From Flavobacteriales bacterium (GTDB lineage: Bacteria > Bacteroidota > Bacteroidia > CAIKAF01): DNA of 64,000 bases. Location: assembly GCA_025451295.1 (NCBI GenBank), contig JANWKQ010000168.1, positions 911 to 64,910 of the forward strand. The letters run 5' to 3'. Every line of letters begins with the position of its first letter. The stretch's first letter is position 1. Both the position numbers and the translations under genes were made by a program. A model generated the notes under the pieces. That model searched no databases. It was not told where the DNA came from and saw only the letters and a list, made by a program, of their open reading frames with translations. Positions 6,433-63,916 of this stretch are shown here, in pieces.

Positions 6433-7809
6433 TTATCCAACGGTTTGTTTTGGAAATGAAACATCTGCGTAATCTTTCCTGATCCTGGAGAGGTGTTCTG
6501 CCGTTTTGGTTACTGCAAAGCTGAGTTCTTCTTCCGTATGGTCACAGGTAATAAAGAACCTAAGTCTTGCTTCCTCTTCTGCTACTGCGGGATATAAAAT
6601 AGGTTGAACATTAATACCATCCAGAAAAAGAGCATTAGCTAATAACAAAGCATGGGCAGAGTTACCAGTAATAACCGGCACAACAGCCGAATCCTTGCTT
6701 GGTCCGGTATTAATTCCTTCTTCGTTGCACAATTTAATGAATAAGGTCGCATTGGTAACCGCTTTTACACCTCTCCAACCTTCCGTCTTCATGATTTTTG
6801 CGGCAGCCAGGGCAGCGCCTGCATTCTGTGGGGTAATTCCTACACTATAAACAAAACCAGGGGTATTATATTTTAAATAATCCACCAATACTTTTTTCCC
6901 TGCAATATATCCACCGCAACTGGCATAGGATTTACTAAAAGTACACATCCACATATCTACCTCATCGCGTTTAACGTTGTGATAATCGCCAACACCTAAA
7001 CCATTCGGGCCAATTACCCCCATCGAATGAGCTTCATCCATAAATAACAGGCAATTGTATTTCTTTTTTATTTCTATCAATCGCGGAAGATTACAAATAT
7101 CACCATCCATGCTAAAAACACCTTCTGTAGCAATCAATACTCTTTCGTAATCGTTGCGAACTTCCGCAAGAATTTTTTCCAATTCATCTAAATTTTCATG
7201 TGGATATGCAATTCTTCTTGCGCCGGATAAAAGACAACCTTCAATAATAGAATTATGTGCCAATGAATCATAGATCACCAGATCTTTACCTGCCCGTAGG
7301 ATATGGCCAATGATTGTTACATTCGTTGCGTGACCACTTACTAAAACGATTGCATCTTCCACCTGGTGAAGCTCGGCAATTGTTTTTTCCAATTCAAGGT
7401 GAATCGGTCTTTCACCGGTAGCAATTCTACTGGCGCTAACCGATGTCCCAAATTTATCTGCGGCATCCTTTGCACCTTGTGTAACCCTTGGGTCACCACT
7501 CATTCCAGTATAGTTATAACTGGAGAAGCTGATGTATTCTTTACCGCCGATTCGGGTTTTATCATTTACAATACCCTCATTAACCCGAAAATACGGATTC
7601 TCAACGTGCAACATTTCGAGGGTCTTATACTGGTTGGCCAGGGTTTGTACCTCAGGCCATTGATTGAAATCTGCAAATTTTGATGTGTCCTTATCTGCGG
7701 TTTCAGTAGTGGTGCTCAAGGTAGTAGCGGTCTTTACCGCCTTTTCCTTCATCATCTTTTTTAAAAGCTCCCTTTTCTCTTCAATCGACAGATTTTTGTT
7801 ATCCGACAT
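6433..7809 (-). CDS. alpha-oxoamine synthase-family acyltransferase (serine palmitoyltransferase / cysteate-C-fatty-acyltransferase-like)
   Basis: AONS/Spt-family PLP fold (…SYNYTGMSGDPRV…, FSKS lysine motif…). About 45-aa N-terminal extension. Confidence 0.8.
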   Translation of the reverse strand: MSDNKNLSIEEKRELLKKMMKEKAVKTATTLSTTTETADKDTSKFADFNQWPEVQTLANQYKTLEMLHVENPYFRVNEGIVNDKTRIGGKEYISFSSYNYTGMSGDPRVTQGAKDAADKFGTSVSASRIATGERPIHLELEKTIAELHQVEDAIVLVSGHATNVTIIGHILRAGKDLVIYDSLAHNSIIEGCLLSGARRIAYPHENLDELEKILAEVRNDYERVLIATEGVFSMDGDICNLPRLIEIKKKYNCLLFMDEAHSMGVIGPNGLGVGDYHNVKRDEVDMWMCTFSKSYASCGGYIAGKKVLVDYLKYNTPGFVYSVGITPQNAGAALAAAKIMKTEGWRGVKAVTNATLFIKLCNEEGINTGPSKDSAVVPVITGNSAHALLLANALFLDGINVQPILYPAVAEEEARLRFFITCDHTEEELSFAVTKTAEHLSRIRKDYADVSFPKQTVG

Positions 7810-7900: not shown

Positions 7901-8659
7901 TTAATTGTTCAACCGTATTCCTTTCCCCTCCAAATAAATAGTATGATTTAAGTAAACGACCGAATTTTTTGTTCTATAATCAATTTCATTGGTTTCGATG
8001 TAGATCACATCAAACAAGTTCCCCTCTTCAAGCTTACCGTAGTCAAACTTCACATATATAAACTCTCCAGGACTTAAGGTTTTTTTCGGAATGGTTATAT
8101 TGGCTTCCTTGCTTAAGGTTTCAATCGAAGTTATCACCAGCTCTTCTTCACCTTCGTTCCAGCATTTTAGTAAACGTATTCCTGAATCTTCATCAACATC
8201 AACGATTCCAAAATCAATGTCACCAGTTTCAAGTTCAGGATGAGGCTTTTCTTTTACTTTTCCAAAAACATAGATATCATATTTCTGATAAATAGGTCGT
8301 CCAGTGCAAAAACTATCTATGATCTCGTTGGTTTCAATCGTGATAATTTCATTGAGGTTCCCACGGTATTCAGTTTTACATCGGATAAGAATCACACCTG
8401 TATCTCCTGGGGCTATTGTATCCGTTGTGGTTTGATAGTCGGTGAAAAATTCTTCCGGGTATTCTACGGTCAAAGGAAATTTACCTGAATTTAAGTATTG
8501 GAGCTCGTATCTGCATTCGGCCACATCATCATATACATTCCCAAAATCGATGGTATCTGTTTCGGGTTGAAAATTATTCTGAGCGATGACGTTACTATCG
8601 AGGATAATAAATCCTATAAAAAGTGTCAATGGTTTAAATATGAATGACAATTTCATCAT
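7901..8659 (-). CDS. secreted DUF1573-like protein (tandem paralog)
   Basis: Signal peptide. Two-repeat architecture paralogous to 8656..9396, sharing the motif FGIVDVDEDSGIRLLK / FGSVYGDEDSGIRLYE. Confidence 0.5.
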   Translation of the reverse strand: MMKLSFIFKPLTLFIGFIILDSNVIAQNNFQPETDTIDFGNVYDDVAECRYELQYLNSGKFPLTVEYPEEFFTDYQTTTDTIAPGDTGVILIRCKTEYRGNLNEIITIETNEIIDSFCTGRPIYQKYDIYVFGKVKEKPHPELETGDIDFGIVDVDEDSGIRLLKCWNEGEEELVITSIETLSKEANITIPKKTLSPGEFIYVKFDYGKLEEGNLFDVIYIETNEIDYRTKNSVVYLNHTIYLEGKGIRLNN

Positions 8660-9396
8660 TTTAAAAGTATGTTTCCAGTTACGGAAATATCCAGGGTTAA
8701 AAACTCAAGTGGAAATACATTGATCGCCTGATTGGTGCCGATACTGATGTTAGCTTCAAATGTACCGGTCTTCTTCATATTGTAAATGATCTTTACATAG
8801 CCTGTTTCATTGGGTTTGATAACGCTTGGGGTTTCGGCTGTTAGGTATTGATTTGTTGAGGTCACTTCACCAAAGATGAGGTCTTTGGTACCTTCATTTG
8901 TCACTTCATACAAACGTATTCCCGAATCTTCATCTCCATACACACTGCCAAAATAAATGCGATTGTATTGGTATGATTGGATATAAGGCCCGGGGGGCGA
9001 CAAAACTTTTCCAAGAACTTTGACCGTATGTGATTTATAGATCGGATATCCTTCGCAATGCATGCTGTCGATCTCATTGGTAGTAATCGTGATCGTTTTA
9101 TTAATGGGGCCTATTCTTGTAATATTATATTTTACTTTTATTACACCAGATTTTCCGGGCGGAAATGGTTCCCTAGGCCAATATGGAACAAGACAGCCAC
9201 AGGATGATTTTACTTCGTGGAAAACCAGCGGTTCATTTCCTGTATTGGTAAATTCCAGATGACGAACACCCGAGTCAAGATCGGAATATATCGTCCCAAA
9301 ATCAATCACATCTTTAGCCGTGAATACCGGACCTGATTGTGCATTCAAGATAATTTGCACTACAATGGTCAGAAAGAATAATGCTGCATTTTTCAC
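8656..9396 (-). CDS. secreted DUF1573 protein
   Basis: DUF1573-type SCGC motif (KSSCGCLVPYW). Signal peptide. 4-nt ATGA overlap with the downstream paralog. Confidence 0.6.
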   Translation of the reverse strand: MKNAALFFLTIVVQIILNAQSGPVFTAKDVIDFGTIYSDLDSGVRHLEFTNTGNEPLVFHEVKSSCGCLVPYWPREPFPPGKSGVIKVKYNITRIGPINKTITITTNEIDSMHCEGYPIYKSHTVKVLGKVLSPPGPYIQSYQYNRIYFGSVYGDEDSGIRLYEVTNEGTKDLIFGEVTSTNQYLTAETPSVIKPNETGYVKIIYNMKKTGTFEANISIGTNQAINVFPLEFLTLDISVTGNILLK

Positions 9397-15601: not shown

Positions 15602-15752
15602 GGGCGCCTTTACCGGTGTTTCGCTGTATCTTTTGTTGTTGCTATTAACTGTGTTGTCGATTTGGAGCAAAGACGGACAATTGTCCGTCTCTACATACGG
15701 CTACTAAATTATTTTAATGGCAACAACAAAAGGATGCCGCTTCACCCCGGGG
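15602..15752 (+). repeat. copy A of a dispersed intergenic repeat family
   Basis: Motif 1 (ccggtgtttcgctgtatcttttgttgttgct). Central perfect palindrome (agacggacaattgtccgtct). Motif 2 (caaaaggatgccgcttc). Shares motifs 1 and 2 with copies at ~24.5 kb and ~39.0 kb. Confidence 0.5.
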
Positions 15753-15807
15753 CGCTACCGTAAATATACTAAGCATTAACGTAAAACATGAAAACCTGTT
15801 GCTGCGG

Positions 15808-18586: not shown

Positions 18587-19543
18587 CTATTTTCGCATCA
18601 GAAGATCCTTAACCGTCTCGTCCAGATTCGGATGATCAAATACAAAACCGGCATTCAATAATTTTTTTACAGATACCCGATTGCCTTTAAGCACAATTTG
18701 TGCCTGTTCGCCCAACAACATTTTCAAAATAAAACCGGGAACTGGAAAAGGCCAGACAGGTTTTTTAATTGCCTTGCCGATGGATCGGGTAAGAGCATTG
18801 TTCGTAACAGGATTGGGAGAAACAGCATTGTAAATACCGGTCATTTTTTTTTCTTCGATACCTTTTAAAAAAACAGAAACCAGGTCATCAATATGGATCC
18901 ATGGAACGATTTGGTTGCCTGAACCTAACGGAGCGCCCATCAACATTCTCACTGGCTTTGCCATTTCAACCAATGCACCGGATTGATCGGACAACACCAC
19001 CCCAATGCGCAATGTAAGCACATCTATATGGGAGGCGAATAAAGGTGTTAGCTCATTTTCCCATTTGTTGGTAAGCTCAGCCAGAAAATCTTTTCCGGCC
19101 TGATCTTCTTCTGTAAACTCGGCATTATTATCCTTGAATCCATAGTATCCGATGGCACTGGCCTGGATGAATTTTTGAACCGGTAAATTATTTTTCAATA
19201 TACAATCAATCAATAATTGGGTGGAGTTAAGACGGCTGTTGATCAATTCTTCTTTTCTTTTTGGCGTCCATTTTCCTTTTCCAACATTTGCCCCTGCGAG
19301 GTTGATCACAAAATCAGTTTGTGAAAAAGCCTCCATGTCTATTCGTTTTTTTTCAGGATCCCATTCATAGGTTGGAATGCTTTGCGCTGTTTTTTTTCGA
19401 CCTAACCATTTTACCTGAAAGCCTAGCTGAAGAAGTTTCTCTGAAAGTGCTTTCCCTACCAGTCCTGAACCTCCAGCTATGAGAACTGTTTTAGACATTA
19501 TGATTTTTTGATCTATATTTATTGCATCACAAATTAAGATCAA
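18587..19543 (-). CDS. TIGR01777/YfcH-family NAD-dependent epimerase-like protein
   Basis: GGSGLVG Rossmann motif. C-terminal DUF1731-like region. Confidence 0.75.
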   Translation of the reverse strand: MILICDAINIDQKIIMSKTVLIAGGSGLVGKALSEKLLQLGFQVKWLGRKKTAQSIPTYEWDPEKKRIDMEAFSQTDFVINLAGANVGKGKWTPKRKEELINSRLNSTQLLIDCILKNNLPVQKFIQASAIGYYGFKDNNAEFTEEDQAGKDFLAELTNKWENELTPLFASHIDVLTLRIGVVLSDQSGALVEMAKPVRMLMGAPLGSGNQIVPWIHIDDLVSVFLKGIEEKKMTGIYNAVSPNPVTNNALTRSIGKAIKKPVWPFPVPGFILKMLLGEQAQIVLKGNRVSVKKLLNAGFVFDHPNLDETVKDLLMRK

Positions 19544-24490: not shown

Positions 24491-24531
24491 TTGACGAATG
24501 ACGATTTACGAGTGACGATTGGCTGACGCCA
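24491..24531. repeat. heptanucleotide tandem repeat (TGACGAN-like, ~4-5 units)
   Basis: Reads tgacgaa tgacgat ttacgag tgacgat tggctga. It shares the 10-mer cgatttacga with the 4.4-kb repeat. Confidence 0.45.
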
Positions 24532-24621
24532 GAATTCGATTTGTTTGGGCGGCTTTTCCCGCTATCCGCTATATCTTTTGCTGAGCAAAAGGATGCCGCT
24601 CCTATCGCGGCCGCTGGCGTC
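24523..24621 (+). repeat. copy B (short form) of the dispersed intergenic repeat family
   Basis: Motif 1 (cgctatatcttttgctg) is directly fused to motif 2 (caaaaggatgccgct). Bounded by a perfect 8-bp inverted repeat (gacgccag…ctggcgtc). Lies between convergent genes. Confidence 0.5.
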
Positions 24622-30591: not shown

Positions 30592-30622
30592 TGGCCCCCT
30601 ATCGGGGGCCATTTTTTTTTGT
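30592..30622 (+). terminator. Rho-independent terminator after tRNA-Phe
   Basis: ggccccc tatc gggggcc hairpin followed by T9. Confidence 0.65.
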
Positions 30623-30836
30623 GAACCCTGATTGAAGCAGCAGTAGCCCGCTGACACCAAAGGCTTGAGGGAGGTTTTGTAGGCCGACTGCAGGGACTAA
30701 AGCGAAAAGCCGTTGCAGGCGACAAGCAAAGAGGGTGGTGGTGTGGCCTTCTAAAAAACATATCACAATAAATAAGCCGTATTATGGTTAATATTGCGGT
30801 GCATTTTCACCTTTTTATCCAGAACCACTTGTTGTT

Positions 30837-34995: not shown

Positions 34996-35110
34996 CTATC
35001 CGGTGTTTCGCTAAACTCTCCTGCTCAAACGTAGGCTCATTCATCCTGCCATCCAGTTATTCCGCCTGCGCTATATAAGGGCTTGCAAGGCATTCGCTCT
35101 GCATTTGAGC
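34996..35110 (+). repeat. possible degenerate copy C of the intergenic repeat family
   Basis: Shares the 13-mer ccggtgtttcgct with copy A. Weaker motif-2-like caaggcattcgct. Confidence 0.3.
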
Positions 35111-38937: not shown

Positions 38938-38984
38938 GGATCAACTTTGATGGATAAAGTTACAAATAATCTCCAATGGCATAG

Positions 38985-39128
38985 GGATAGAAGCGGCATC
39001 CTTTTTATTGCTTCCCAAAACCATTTTCGATGCAGCAGTACAGACGTGCCCTGGCACGTCTCCTCAAATTGACGAAACTACGCGAACAGCAATAAAAAGA
39101 TATAGCGAATAGCCCGTTGCGCCATAGC
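38985..39128 (-). repeat. copy D of the dispersed intergenic repeat family (inverted orientation)
   Basis: On the minus strand it contains motif 1 (ttcgctatatctttttattgctg), the palindrome (agacgtgccagggcacgtct) and motif 2 (gcaataaaaaggatgccgcttc), in the same order and spacing as copy A. Confidence 0.5.
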
Positions 39129-39163
39129 TAAAGGCGAGGCGAGGAGGGAGGCGCAATGCCCAT

Positions 39164-39187
39164 AAAAAAGCCCCTCCGAAAAGGGGC
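39164..39187 (-). terminator. terminator for the 39213..39917 gene
   Basis: gcccctccgaaaaggggc hairpin with a T-run on the minus strand. Confidence 0.5.
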
Positions 39188-39212: not shown

Positions 39213-39917
39213 TTATTTTTCCTGGAGGTCATCATCAAATCCTTTATCACCACCCTTTTTCTTCCGTTCACCTTTTTTATTCTTTCTATACTCCTTTATT
39301 AGTTTGATCTGATCTTCCGATAGAATTTTCTTAACACCTTCTTTTTTATCTTCATTAATGACTTTCATCGCATTCTTCATTCCATCAGTACCCAGATCGT
39401 TGGCACAAAAAGCCGCTTTTTTTCTGGTAGCCAGATCTGTCAACAAAACCTTCATGTCATTACGTTGGTTTCCGGTGAATTTTACAATTTCATCTATTTG
39501 ATCGAGGCGATGATCAATCCTCTCATCCAGACTACCTCCTTTTTTATGATCCTGTTTTTTACCTTTATGTTCCGCCTTCTTTTCTTTTAAATGTGTTTTC
39601 AAAAGTTTCACCTGGTCATTCGATAGGATTTTTTTTACACCCGCTTTTTTCTCTTTCTGAATATCCTTCATTGCATTTTTCATTCCTGCCGAACCTATTT
39701 CGTTGGTACAAAAGGCATCTTTCTTCTTTTTGGCAAGATCTGTAAGCAAGATCTTCAGATCGTTTCGCTGTGTGCCGGTAAATTTGACCACTTCATCCAT
39801 TTTATCAAGGCGGCGATCCACCCGGTCTTCTATAGTTCCACCACCGCGGTGATGCTGGCTGAAGCTAAAGGCTACCATACCAAGGAATACTGCTATACTT
39901 AATGTTAACCGTTTCAT
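39213..39917 (-). CDS. secreted Lys-rich protein with two ~100-aa internal repeats, LTXXQ/Spy-CpxP-like
   Basis: Signal peptide. Internal duplication (…RLDKMDEVVKFTGTQRNDLKILLTDLAKKKKDAFC… versus …RLDQIDEIVKFTGNQRNDMKVLLTDLATRKKAAFC…). LS(N/E)DQ motifs resemble LTXXQ. Confidence 0.45.
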   Translation of the reverse strand: MKRLTLSIAVFLGMVAFSFSQHHRGGGTIEDRVDRRLDKMDEVVKFTGTQRNDLKILLTDLAKKKKDAFCTNEIGSAGMKNAMKDIQKEKKAGVKKILSNDQVKLLKTHLKEKKAEHKGKKQDHKKGGSLDERIDHRLDQIDEIVKFTGNQRNDMKVLLTDLATRKKAAFCANDLGTDGMKNAMKVINEDKKEGVKKILSEDQIKLIKEYRKNKKGERKKKGGDKGFDDDLQEK

Positions 39918-62471: not shown

Positions 62472-62960
62472 TTGTTGAGTTTTATGAGGAAAACATGGAT
62501 TGTTGTTTTAATTATTTCTGTCTCCAGTTTTTTTGTGGCCTGTGGTGTTAAATCAGCTTTTAAAAATGAGAATAACGCTTTCGGAAACCCCAAATCAGCT
62601 GCTACAAAATATTTGAAATGTCTGTTGAAAAAAGACTATGACAAAGCGAAGACATTGGCTACTAAAGAAACCGCATCTAATCTGGATATGATGAAAGTGC
62701 TGGGAACGGATTTTGGATTGACAGAAGTAAAAGACGTTAAATGTTTTGTAAATGGGAATACTGCTACCTGTACCTTTTGCTGTACCAAGGATACTTCTTT
62801 TAAGGAGCTGAAGATGATCAATGAGGGTGGCAAATGGCTGGCGCACCAACCCAAAGAAATGCCTCCTATAGATACTACGGCTACTGAGGAGTATAATGAT
62901 GAATATAGTACTCCAAAAACCCCGGAGGATATGGAAAAAAGACGTATGCAAAACCGTTAA
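62472..62960 (+). CDS. lipoprotein, paralog 1 of 3 (NTF2-like small lipoprotein family)
   Basis: Lipobox (FVACG). Conserved ...NAFGNPKS.ATKYL.CL.KKDYDKAKTLAT.ET….ATCTFCCTKDTSFKELKM..EGGKWLAHQPKE. Confidence 0.6.
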   Translation: MLSFMRKTWIVVLIISVSSFFVACGVKSAFKNENNAFGNPKSAATKYLKCLLKKDYDKAKTLATKETASNLDMMKVLGTDFGLTEVKDVKCFVNGNTATCTFCCTKDTSFKELKMINEGGKWLAHQPKEMPPIDTTATEEYNDEYSTPKTPEDMEKRRMQNR

Positions 62961-62972
62961 AATAAAAACAGC

Positions 62973-63446
62973 ATGAAAAAAAGACTTTCAATTATTTCCG
63001 TTGGCCTTATCCTGGTTATCTTGGTTGGATGTGGTGTAAAATTCTCCTTCAACAATAATGAGAATTCCTTTGGGAATCCCAAATCGGTAGCTACCAAATA
63101 TCTAACCTGCCTGATGAAGAAAGACTATGATAAAGCCAAAACGTTGGCTACCCCAGAAACTGCTCAAAACCTTAGTATGATGCAATCCATGGGTGCAGAT
63201 TTTGGACTCACAGTGGTGAAGGATGTAAAATGTATTGTAAGCGGAAATGAAGCCACCTGTACTTTTTGCTGTACAAAAGATACTTCGTTTAAAGAACTTA
63301 AAATGAGAAAAGAAGGAGGAAAATGGTTGGCACATCAACCGAAGGAAACGCCGCCTATTGATAACGAAGATAATAATAGCAATACCGATTACCTTACACC
63401 CAAATCGGCCGAGGACATGGAAAAGAATCGCCAGAAAAACCGTTAA
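62973..63446 (+). CDS. lipoprotein, paralog 2 of 3
   Basis: About 70% identical to its neighbours. Lipobox LVGCG. Confidence 0.6.
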   Translation: MKKRLSIISVGLILVILVGCGVKFSFNNNENSFGNPKSVATKYLTCLMKKDYDKAKTLATPETAQNLSMMQSMGADFGLTVVKDVKCIVSGNEATCTFCCTKDTSFKELKMRKEGGKWLAHQPKETPPIDNEDNNSNTDYLTPKSAEDMEKNRQKNR

Positions 63447-63457
63447 AATAAAACTGT

Positions 63458-63916
63458 ATGAAAAAAAGACTTTCCATTATTTCGATCAGCCTTATCCTGG
63501 TTGTATTGATTGGATGTGGTATGAAATTCTCATTCAACAATAATGAGAATTCTTTTGGGAATCCCAAATCGGTAGCTACAAAATATTTAACCTACCTGAT
63601 GCAGAAGAATTATGACAAGGCTAAAACGATTGCTACCAAAGAAACAGCAGCCAATCTTGATATGATGAATTCCCTGGGGACCGATTTTGGGATCACGGTG
63701 GTAAAGAATGTGGTTTGCAAAGTAAAAAACGATGAAGCTACCTGTACTTTTTGTTGTACGAAGGATACTTCCTTTAAAGAACTTAAGATGAGAAAAGAGG
63801 GAGGTCAATGGCTTGCACATCAACCCAAAGAAACACCACCCTCAAATGACGATAACAATAATTATTCCACACCGAGATCAGCTGAGGAGATTGAAAGAGG
63901 TCGTCAGAACCGTTAA
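63458..63916 (+). CDS. lipoprotein, paralog 3 of 3
   Basis: About 70% identical to its neighbours. Lipobox LIGCG. Confidence 0.6.
   Translation: MKKRLSIISISLILVVLIGCGMKFSFNNNENSFGNPKSVATKYLTYLMQKNYDKAKTIATKETAANLDMMNSLGTDFGITVVKNVVCKVKNDEATCTFCCTKDTSFKELKMRKEGGQWLAHQPKETPPSNDDNNNYSTPRSAEEIERGRQNR

Follow-up and report, generated by a model that had tools for sequence, protein, structure and literature searches.

Intergenic repeats of a Flavobacteriales contig are Flavo-1 (RF01705) elements, possibly part of a REP-like hairpin repeat family

What are the short structured repeats that recur between the genes of this Flavobacteriales contig? In the window (the whole 64,000-nucleotide stretch that was analyzed), a first-pass annotation had described three intergenic regions, here copies A, B, and D, sharing two motifs, and had proposed a REP/MITE-like element or a multicopy structured small RNA for which it was aware of no described family. 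The sharing of the motifs is borne out. Motif 1 (CGCTRTATCTTTT, with at most one mismatch) occurs at 15622, 24567, and, on the minus strand, 39095, against a mean of 0.15 in shuffled sequence (three matches reached in 0/100 shuffles). Motif 2 (CAAAAGGATGCCGCT, with at most two mismatches) occurs at 15727 and 24586 on the plus strand and at 38992 on the minus strand, together with one intragenic two-mismatch match (shuffle mean, 0.12; four matches reached in 0/100); both counts are thus far above shuffle expectation. As had also been described, all three copies lie between open reading frames, they occur in both orientations (A and B on the minus strand, D on the plus strand of the window), and they are richer in G+C (0.47, 0.56, and 0.47, respectively) than their flanks (0.37-0.41) and the window average (0.396).

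Copies A, B, and D are Flavo-1 elements (Rfam RF01705), a known hairpin family of Bacteroidota. A scan of the window with Rfam 15 returned Flavo-1 matches above the gathering threshold of 42 bits for copies B and D and one below it for copy A (Table 1), the latter with an E value of 8.9e-7 in a 401-nt search and of 1.4e-4 in the whole window. Copy A falls below the threshold because its P2 helix reads G-C/U-A instead of A-U/U-A; we accept it as a divergent member of the family, on account of the 14- to 16-mers and the homologous insert common to A and D. Read as reverse complements, motif 1 matches the 3' arm of Flavo-1 and motif 2 the 5' arm, and the supposition that these motifs belonged to no described family was wrong, the family having been published in 2010. 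The first-pass annotation had itself held that a hit to a known Rfam family would remove the novelty and leave the repeat in place, and this is the outcome: its dispersed, structured, intergenic repeat fits what we find, and only its undescribed status is lost. The host is also of the expected kind. The best relatives of the window's SerRS come from Flavobacteriales, Bacteroidales, and other Bacteroidota (62-68% identity), and syntenic relatives encode GldM and Por_Secre_tail proteins. Flavo-1 hosts are Bacteroidota, with a few in Spirochaetota.

The family was first described from 239 sequences, nearly all from Flavobacteria or other Bacteroidetes, and no function was proposed for it (Weinberg et al. 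2010, Genome Biol 11:R31; PMC2864571). In the transcriptome of F. psychrophilum, some Flavo-1 matches coincide with transcribed regions, in sense or antisense orientation, and many are found elsewhere, a picture "giving no real clues on function" (PMC9723704). Rfam labels the family "Gene; sRNA" and annotates its stem as variable in length. It is also listed among the most abundant "sRNA" families.

Table 1. Flavo-1 copies, their apical tips, and a possible further copy in the window
Feature	Start	End	Strand	Details
Copy A, long Flavo-1 form	15602	15759	-	Rfam match 15606-15757 (-), 38.2 bits; fold -59.4 kcal/mol, z = -6.0
Copy A apical tip	15671	15690		Perfect 20-nt palindrome AGACGGACAATTGTCCGTCT
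Copy B, short Flavo-1 form	24525	24621	-	Rfam match 24551-24616 (-), 50.2 bits; own model R1, 70 bits
Possible decayed fourth copy	30620	30720	+	Directly after tRNA-Phe terminator; CUGAUUGAAGCAGC...AAAGCGAAAAGCC
Copy D, long Flavo-1 form	38976	39125	+	Rfam match 38974-39123 (+), 48.2 bits; R1, 59.5 bits
Copy D apical tip	39042	39061		AGACGTGC-CCTG-GCACGTCT; 8-bp arms, 4-nt centre

Folded on the Flavo-1 strand, all three copies recover the Rfam helices plus an outer stem, P0, which is separated from P1 by a bulge of 4-5 nt on the 3' side. Reading along the minus strand, P0 of copy A pairs GCGCC (15755-15751) with GGCGC (15608-15604) and encloses the core arms and a 75-nt apical insert, and a CCAAAG tail follows it. 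Copy B pairs GCGGC (24614-24610) with GCCGC (24553-24549) and continues into CCAAAC, so that a CCAAA-type tail follows P0 in both A and B. In copy D, P0 pairs ATGGC (38976-38980) with GCCAT (39121-39125), and P1 pairs GGG with CCC. The ends of copies A and D were set by this outer stem, which places them slightly further out than the limits first given. Between A and D, compensatory changes are seen in P1 and P2.

What had been called the central part of copies A and D is the 75-nt insertion in the apical loop, as expected of a family annotated with a variable-length stem, and the "central palindromes" are the tips of that stem. The two inserts are homologous, with 45 of 79 aligned columns identical and an alignment score reached in 0/500 shuffles. 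Both palindromes had been described as perfect; this is true of copy A but not of copy D, whose 4-nt centre is not self-complementary. A tip near-identical to that of copy D (GGACGTGCCCTGGCACGTCT) is present in the site A orthologue of a relative (L234). Copy B, which shows a 1-nt apical gap relative to the Rfam model, is indeed a short form bounded by an 8-bp inverted repeat (GACGCCAG/CTGGCGTC, 24525-24532 and 24614-24621). In the fold, these repeats give an extra outermost stem of 8 bp (24621-24614 with 24532-24525; GACGCCAG/CUGGCGUC), which overlaps the gcvP stop codon by one base (the first of the stem, the last of the codon); the genes on either side converge.

The three sites differ in their gene context. 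Copy A lies 50 nt past the serS stop codon and 14 nt ahead of the ATG of a TPR gene, sense to both, and copy D, set between the intrinsic terminator of the gene at 39213-39917 and the start of a Sir2 gene, runs antisense to the genes on both sides. Directly 3' of copy D, a G+C-rich stretch at 39126-39165 (AGCTAAAGGCGAGGCGAGGAGGGAGGCGCAATGCCCAT) holds an inverted repeat (TTGCGCC/GGCGCAA) lying across the end of the copy. This stretch is missing at the same site in four relatives and may have arrived together with copy D.

Two further places in the window were considered as copies. The degenerate copy that had been proposed at 34996-35110 is rejected: a 311-nt search gave no Flavo-1 match even at E<=10, only the shared 13-mer aligns, and the local score of 13 is at chance level, being equalled by 60 of 319 other 200-nt segments. 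The stretch at 30620-30720, similar to the type whose apical stem reads GUAGCCC...GGGACUA, is possibly what is left of a fourth, decayed copy; its scores (13.3 bits and E 0.18 for R1 with filters off; 15.2 bits and E 0.93 for Rfam in a 191-nt search) are not significant alone. With filters off, R1 gives scores that are too low for long forms because of the 75-nt insert, and it was not used to judge them. For the window, the outcome is an annotation: three intergenic Flavo-1 elements and perhaps a decayed fourth. Elsewhere in the window, three tandem paralogous ORFs of 152-162 amino acids, none with a Pfam match, occupy 62472-63916 on the plus strand (unit of ~485 bp, 62-82% DNA identity), and an adjacent pair of paralogous genes at 7901-9396 on the minus strand encodes two DUF1573 (Ig-like) products.

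To place the window copies within the family at large, we used the covariance model R1, built from 17 published seeds, copies A, B, and D, and one copy from locus L013, with the inserts of A and D trimmed. It gave 21 matches outside the window in 80 serS-centred Bacteroidota loci (1.5 Mb) and 107 matches in 100/120 metagenome loci fetched by a 5'-arm pattern, so that the wider search suggested by the first-pass annotation yielded about 130 further copies. The hairpin covaries strongly in these copies. Among the 107 metagenome copies, standard pairs fill 91% of cells versus 72% in shuffles, and 13 of the 16 pairs change on both sides, which is matched in 0/500 shuffles; slid controls are 38-51% paired. 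Helices P1-P4 with 3x3 internal loops are supported by covariation in these copies and in A and D of the window. Wobble pairs are rare and favour the annotated strand, G.U outnumbering A.C by 32 to 11 overall and by about 10 to 1 in P1-P3, an asymmetry that may be inflated by R1, whose scoring slightly prefers G.U over A.C. The share of G.U among apical-stem pairs is 7.0% for the sense strand versus 4.6% for the antisense strand.

The outer stem is a property of the family. P0 is a perfect 5-bp complement in 74 of 132 copies, versus 23 and 21 in two controls, and comes in 26 distinct paired variants, such as GCGUU/AACGC, GCGAU/AUCGC, GCACU/AGUGC, GGCUU/AAGCC, and CUGUC/GACAG. Neither P0, whose positions are unpaired in the Rfam consensus structure, nor the conserved CC(N)AAA tail belongs to that structure; the real unit is therefore larger than the model. 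Two types can be told apart by their flanks, type I reading GCGUUA-GGG...CCC-GA-[small hairpin]-NAACGC-CCAAA and type II reading CUAGCC-CNG...CNG-GAAAUAGCUCC-UAAA. A GCTCC motif upstream of type I copies was present in only 5 of 62 and is not general. The conserved core, AGCG/AGCG, is nearly two-fold symmetric (A.G, G-C, C-G, G.A). A K-turn reading of the internal loops was rejected on inspection, the loops being symmetric (3x3) and not a 3-nt bulge with tandem G.A pairs.

An almost invariant type I apical module, GCCCACAGCCUGACGAAGGAAGUGCGAGGAC, is found at L023:7255-7333, L035:8873-8951, L050:4345-4423, and on plasmid NC_004703.1 at 18640-18726 (L081:6001-6087). It is common to several Flavobacterium species and to 83 plasmid records of Bacteroides, Phocaeicola, and Parabacteroides, a conservation far beyond that expected of a "variable" stem. 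The long forms in L117, L132, L133, L129, and L131 (139-145 nt) carry apical inserts unlike those of copies A and D, and several of them hold hairpins of the GAGATACTGAAACAAGTTCAGCAC kind, apparently a further small repeat lodged within the Flavo-1 loop.

Comparison with related genomes indicates how stable individual copies are. The metagenome relatives of the source organism have SerRS proteins 82-86% identical to that of the window and conserve synteny. At site A, three of four lineages (the window, L234, and L235/L236) carry a copy, always in the same orientation, and L233 does not; one P4 pair takes a different form in each, U-A (window), C-G (L234), or G-C (L235), and double changes are also seen in P1 and P2. 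Among five lineages, the window alone has a copy at site D, the element being missing in the four relatives. Three Aquimarina species have a Flavo-1 element immediately ahead of serS, and of seven Flavobacterium species, four carry one upstream of the conserved metG promoter, with compensatory differences; in the remaining three, unrelated sequence occupies this site. Unrelated sequence also occupies the unfilled sites in the relatives compared at sites A and D, and no clean empty site was recovered among them. Thus, copies are gained and lost between related genomes, and some persist with their pairing maintained. At the metG upstream site of one Flavobacterium (L034, ~7000-7110), a different long palindrome, CATTCCGACGAAGGAGGAATCT...AGATTCCTCCTTCGTCGGAATG, stands where relatives carry Flavo-1 and is followed by an apparent remnant of a Flavo-1 3' arm (GATTGTGTGTAAATAGCCCC), pointing to a second family of repeats in competition for these intergenic niches.

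How, then, should the family be read? Taken as genuine small-RNA genes, each copy would be self-transcribed and would act in trans or bind protein as RNA. The strong covariation, the excess of G.U over A.C on the annotated strand, an internal-loop type (3x3, purine-rich) characteristic of RNA tertiary or protein-binding motifs, and the retention of pairing by orthologous copies across species would all agree with such genes, and a preprint names Flavo-1, in a bare mention, among unannotated transcribed regions of Leptospira. However, the copies lack promoter and terminator signals of their own: the bacteroidotal -7 motif (TANNTTTG) is spread evenly upstream, with 18 occurrences over 122 copies and no peak at any position, and no U-tract follows the hairpin, T5 coming after only 24 of 128 copies versus A5 after 63. 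A terminator reading was rejected on the A-rich, not U-rich, 3' flank. Since, moreover, the copies number tens per genome in either orientation, come and go between close relatives, and in F. psychrophilum are in many cases not transcribed (PMC9723704), we consider small-RNA genes unlikely. Another reading is a cis-acting leader or UTR element that acts on the translation or stability of a neighbour's mRNA, for example that of aminoacyl-tRNA synthetase genes. Crude ORF calls around 131 distinct copies left 97 classifiable, 23 of them in divergent and 16 in convergent spacers. In the divergent spacers, 18 of 23 copies have their 3' end towards the closer of the two gene starts (p = 0.01), and several copies end 10-25 nt ahead of a start codon, which hints at a 5'-leader role for a subset of copies. 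Sense copies ending 8-26 nt before start codons (copy A and the TPR gene; serS in the three Aquimarina species), an A-rich tail that resembles bacteroidotal translation-initiation regions, and the coincidence of some 5' transcribed regions of F. psychrophilum with Flavo-1 (PMC9723704) point the same way. Yet in co-directional spacers there is no orientation bias (27 sense versus 31 antisense copies, p = 0.69), copy D is antisense on both sides, the metG copies stand upstream of a conserved TAnnTTTG box and so apparently outside the mRNA, and the neighbouring genes have no common function. The apparent link to synthetase genes is an artefact of sampling, serS having been the anchor with which these loci were retrieved. 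As an account of the family, a leader element appears quite improbable.

The dispersal of the element might also be that of a classical MITE, an insertion sequence (IS) deletion derivative whose arms would serve as terminal inverted repeats for a DDE transposase that works on double-stranded DNA. The same ends in short forms of 66-97 nt and long ones of about 150 nt, intergenic placement in both orientations, and presence or absence between relatives are what such an origin would give. Against it, recognition of double-stranded terminal repeats predicts no compensation between arms, no asymmetric conserved loops, and no bias of G.U over A.C. Target-site duplications, which the first-pass annotation had proposed to look for, are not visible at the copy borders, the similarity of near-identical non-orthologous copies ending precisely where P0 begins and behind AACGCC, with no direct repeat in common; the fetched loci contain no IS with ends matching Flavo-1, and very few decayed copies are seen. 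We regard a MITE origin as very improbable. The search for a gene that could mobilize the element covered 2.6 Mb of fetched DNA, in which a scan for HUH/Y1 motifs found one group-1-like gene, not flanked by copies; the single-copy Y1/HUH gene flanked by copies that marks REP/REPIN systems was thus not found there. This gene, at L118:10667-10891 (plus strand), encodes a Y1/HUH (RAYT group-1-like) protein with the motifs NHFH...YVHLNP and lies 6 kb from a Flavo-1 copy. Quentin et al. 2018 (PMC6006769) described "atypical secondary structures" on the flanks of RAYT subclass 2.6, which is specific to Bacteroidetes, and a link to Flavo-1 was considered and rejected, the hairpins of Table S1 in that work (e.g., GCTAGCGCGAGCGTCCCGCTCGTG) being short, simple, and unrelated to Flavo-1 (PMC6006769). 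Genes between closely spaced copies are all housekeeping genes, with no transposase among them.

Flavo-1 also occurs on 83 Bacteroidales plasmid records, and the copy on p5482 is intergenic and lies beside tra genes, where no oriT or origin is annotated; copy B has no plasmid match. Twenty full-length elements (54-74 bits) are present on IMG/VR contigs classed as viral (L202-L232), some of which hold two; these contigs may be phages or prophage-flanking host DNA.

The explanation that we favour, and to which we give an even chance, is that Flavo-1 is a REP-like single-strand hairpin repeat that binds a putative protein. Each copy would be a strand-specific hairpin, folded as single-stranded DNA or in any read-through transcript, and a putative conserved protein would dock on its AGCG/AGCG core, which has near two-fold symmetry. 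Copies are scattered through intergenic DNA irrespective of gene direction and are gained and lost between related genomes, some of them living long at one site under selection for pairing. We infer the protein binding, the single-stranded form that would act, and any means of spread; the reasons for preferring a repeat to RNA genes are the unmodelled outer stem, the random orientation, the lack of promoter and terminator, and the gain and loss of copies beside long-lived ones. Several observations speak against a REP-like repeat: no transposase or cognate gene, no target duplication, and no clean empty site was found in the fetched DNA; the core is conserved across the phylum, unlike the lineage-specific REPs of Proteobacteria; and the G.U excess and conserved purine loops fit RNA equally well. 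The fuller proposal, that Flavo-1 is the REP equivalent of Bacteroidota, a phylum-wide repeat folding on one strand that includes P0 and the CC(N)AAA tail and whose core docks a putative conserved protein, possibly the mobilizing enzyme, is tentative, and we hold its chances to be somewhat below even. For 15 years Flavo-1 has been classified among small-RNA genes; if it is REP-like, the annotation of its hits in thousands of Bacteroidota genomes would change, and a putative binding or mobilizing protein would be indicated.

How do the copies compare with described systems? With Flavo-1 as published (RF01705), those of the window share the core GAUWGNAGCGG ... AGCGRAWAGC, helices P1-P4, 3x3 purine loops, the variable apical stem, the phylum, and the multicopy habit. 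They differ from it, as do most other copies, in carrying P0 and the CC(N)AAA tail, unpaired in the Rfam consensus, and A and D differ further in the long form with a lineage-specific homologous 75-nt insert. The REP/REPIN-RAYT systems of E. coli and Pseudomonas are similarly built of short extragenic palindromes, present in many copies in either orientation and with compensatory changes in the hairpin, all of which we find in Flavo-1; long vertical persistence and the coexistence of singlet and longer forms are further likenesses, as would be strand-specific recognition of the single strand. Unlike REPs, Flavo-1 has no GT[AG]G (or CGTC) foot, its 5' feet being UAGCC or GCGUUA, and no associated RAYT was found in the fetched DNA, while its phylum-wide core, conserved internal loops, and type I side hairpin set it further apart.

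Other families resemble Flavo-1 in size and habit. MITE-like repeats of the enterobacterial and neisserial kind (ERIC/IRU, Correia, RUP, and BOX) are likewise intergenic, 70-150 bp long, and found as full-length and internally deleted forms, and they are often co-transcribed with their neighbours. They have terminal inverted repeats, target duplications (TA for Correia), and little covariation between arms, whereas Flavo-1 covaries and shows no visible duplication. The attC sites of integrons offer another parallel, in that an imperfect hairpin is folded from one strand, with conserved unpaired bases and a terminal structure ranging from a few to more than 100 nt. In contrast, attC sites stand in same-orientation cassette arrays beside an integrase, and Flavo-1 is placed among housekeeping genes, in both orientations.
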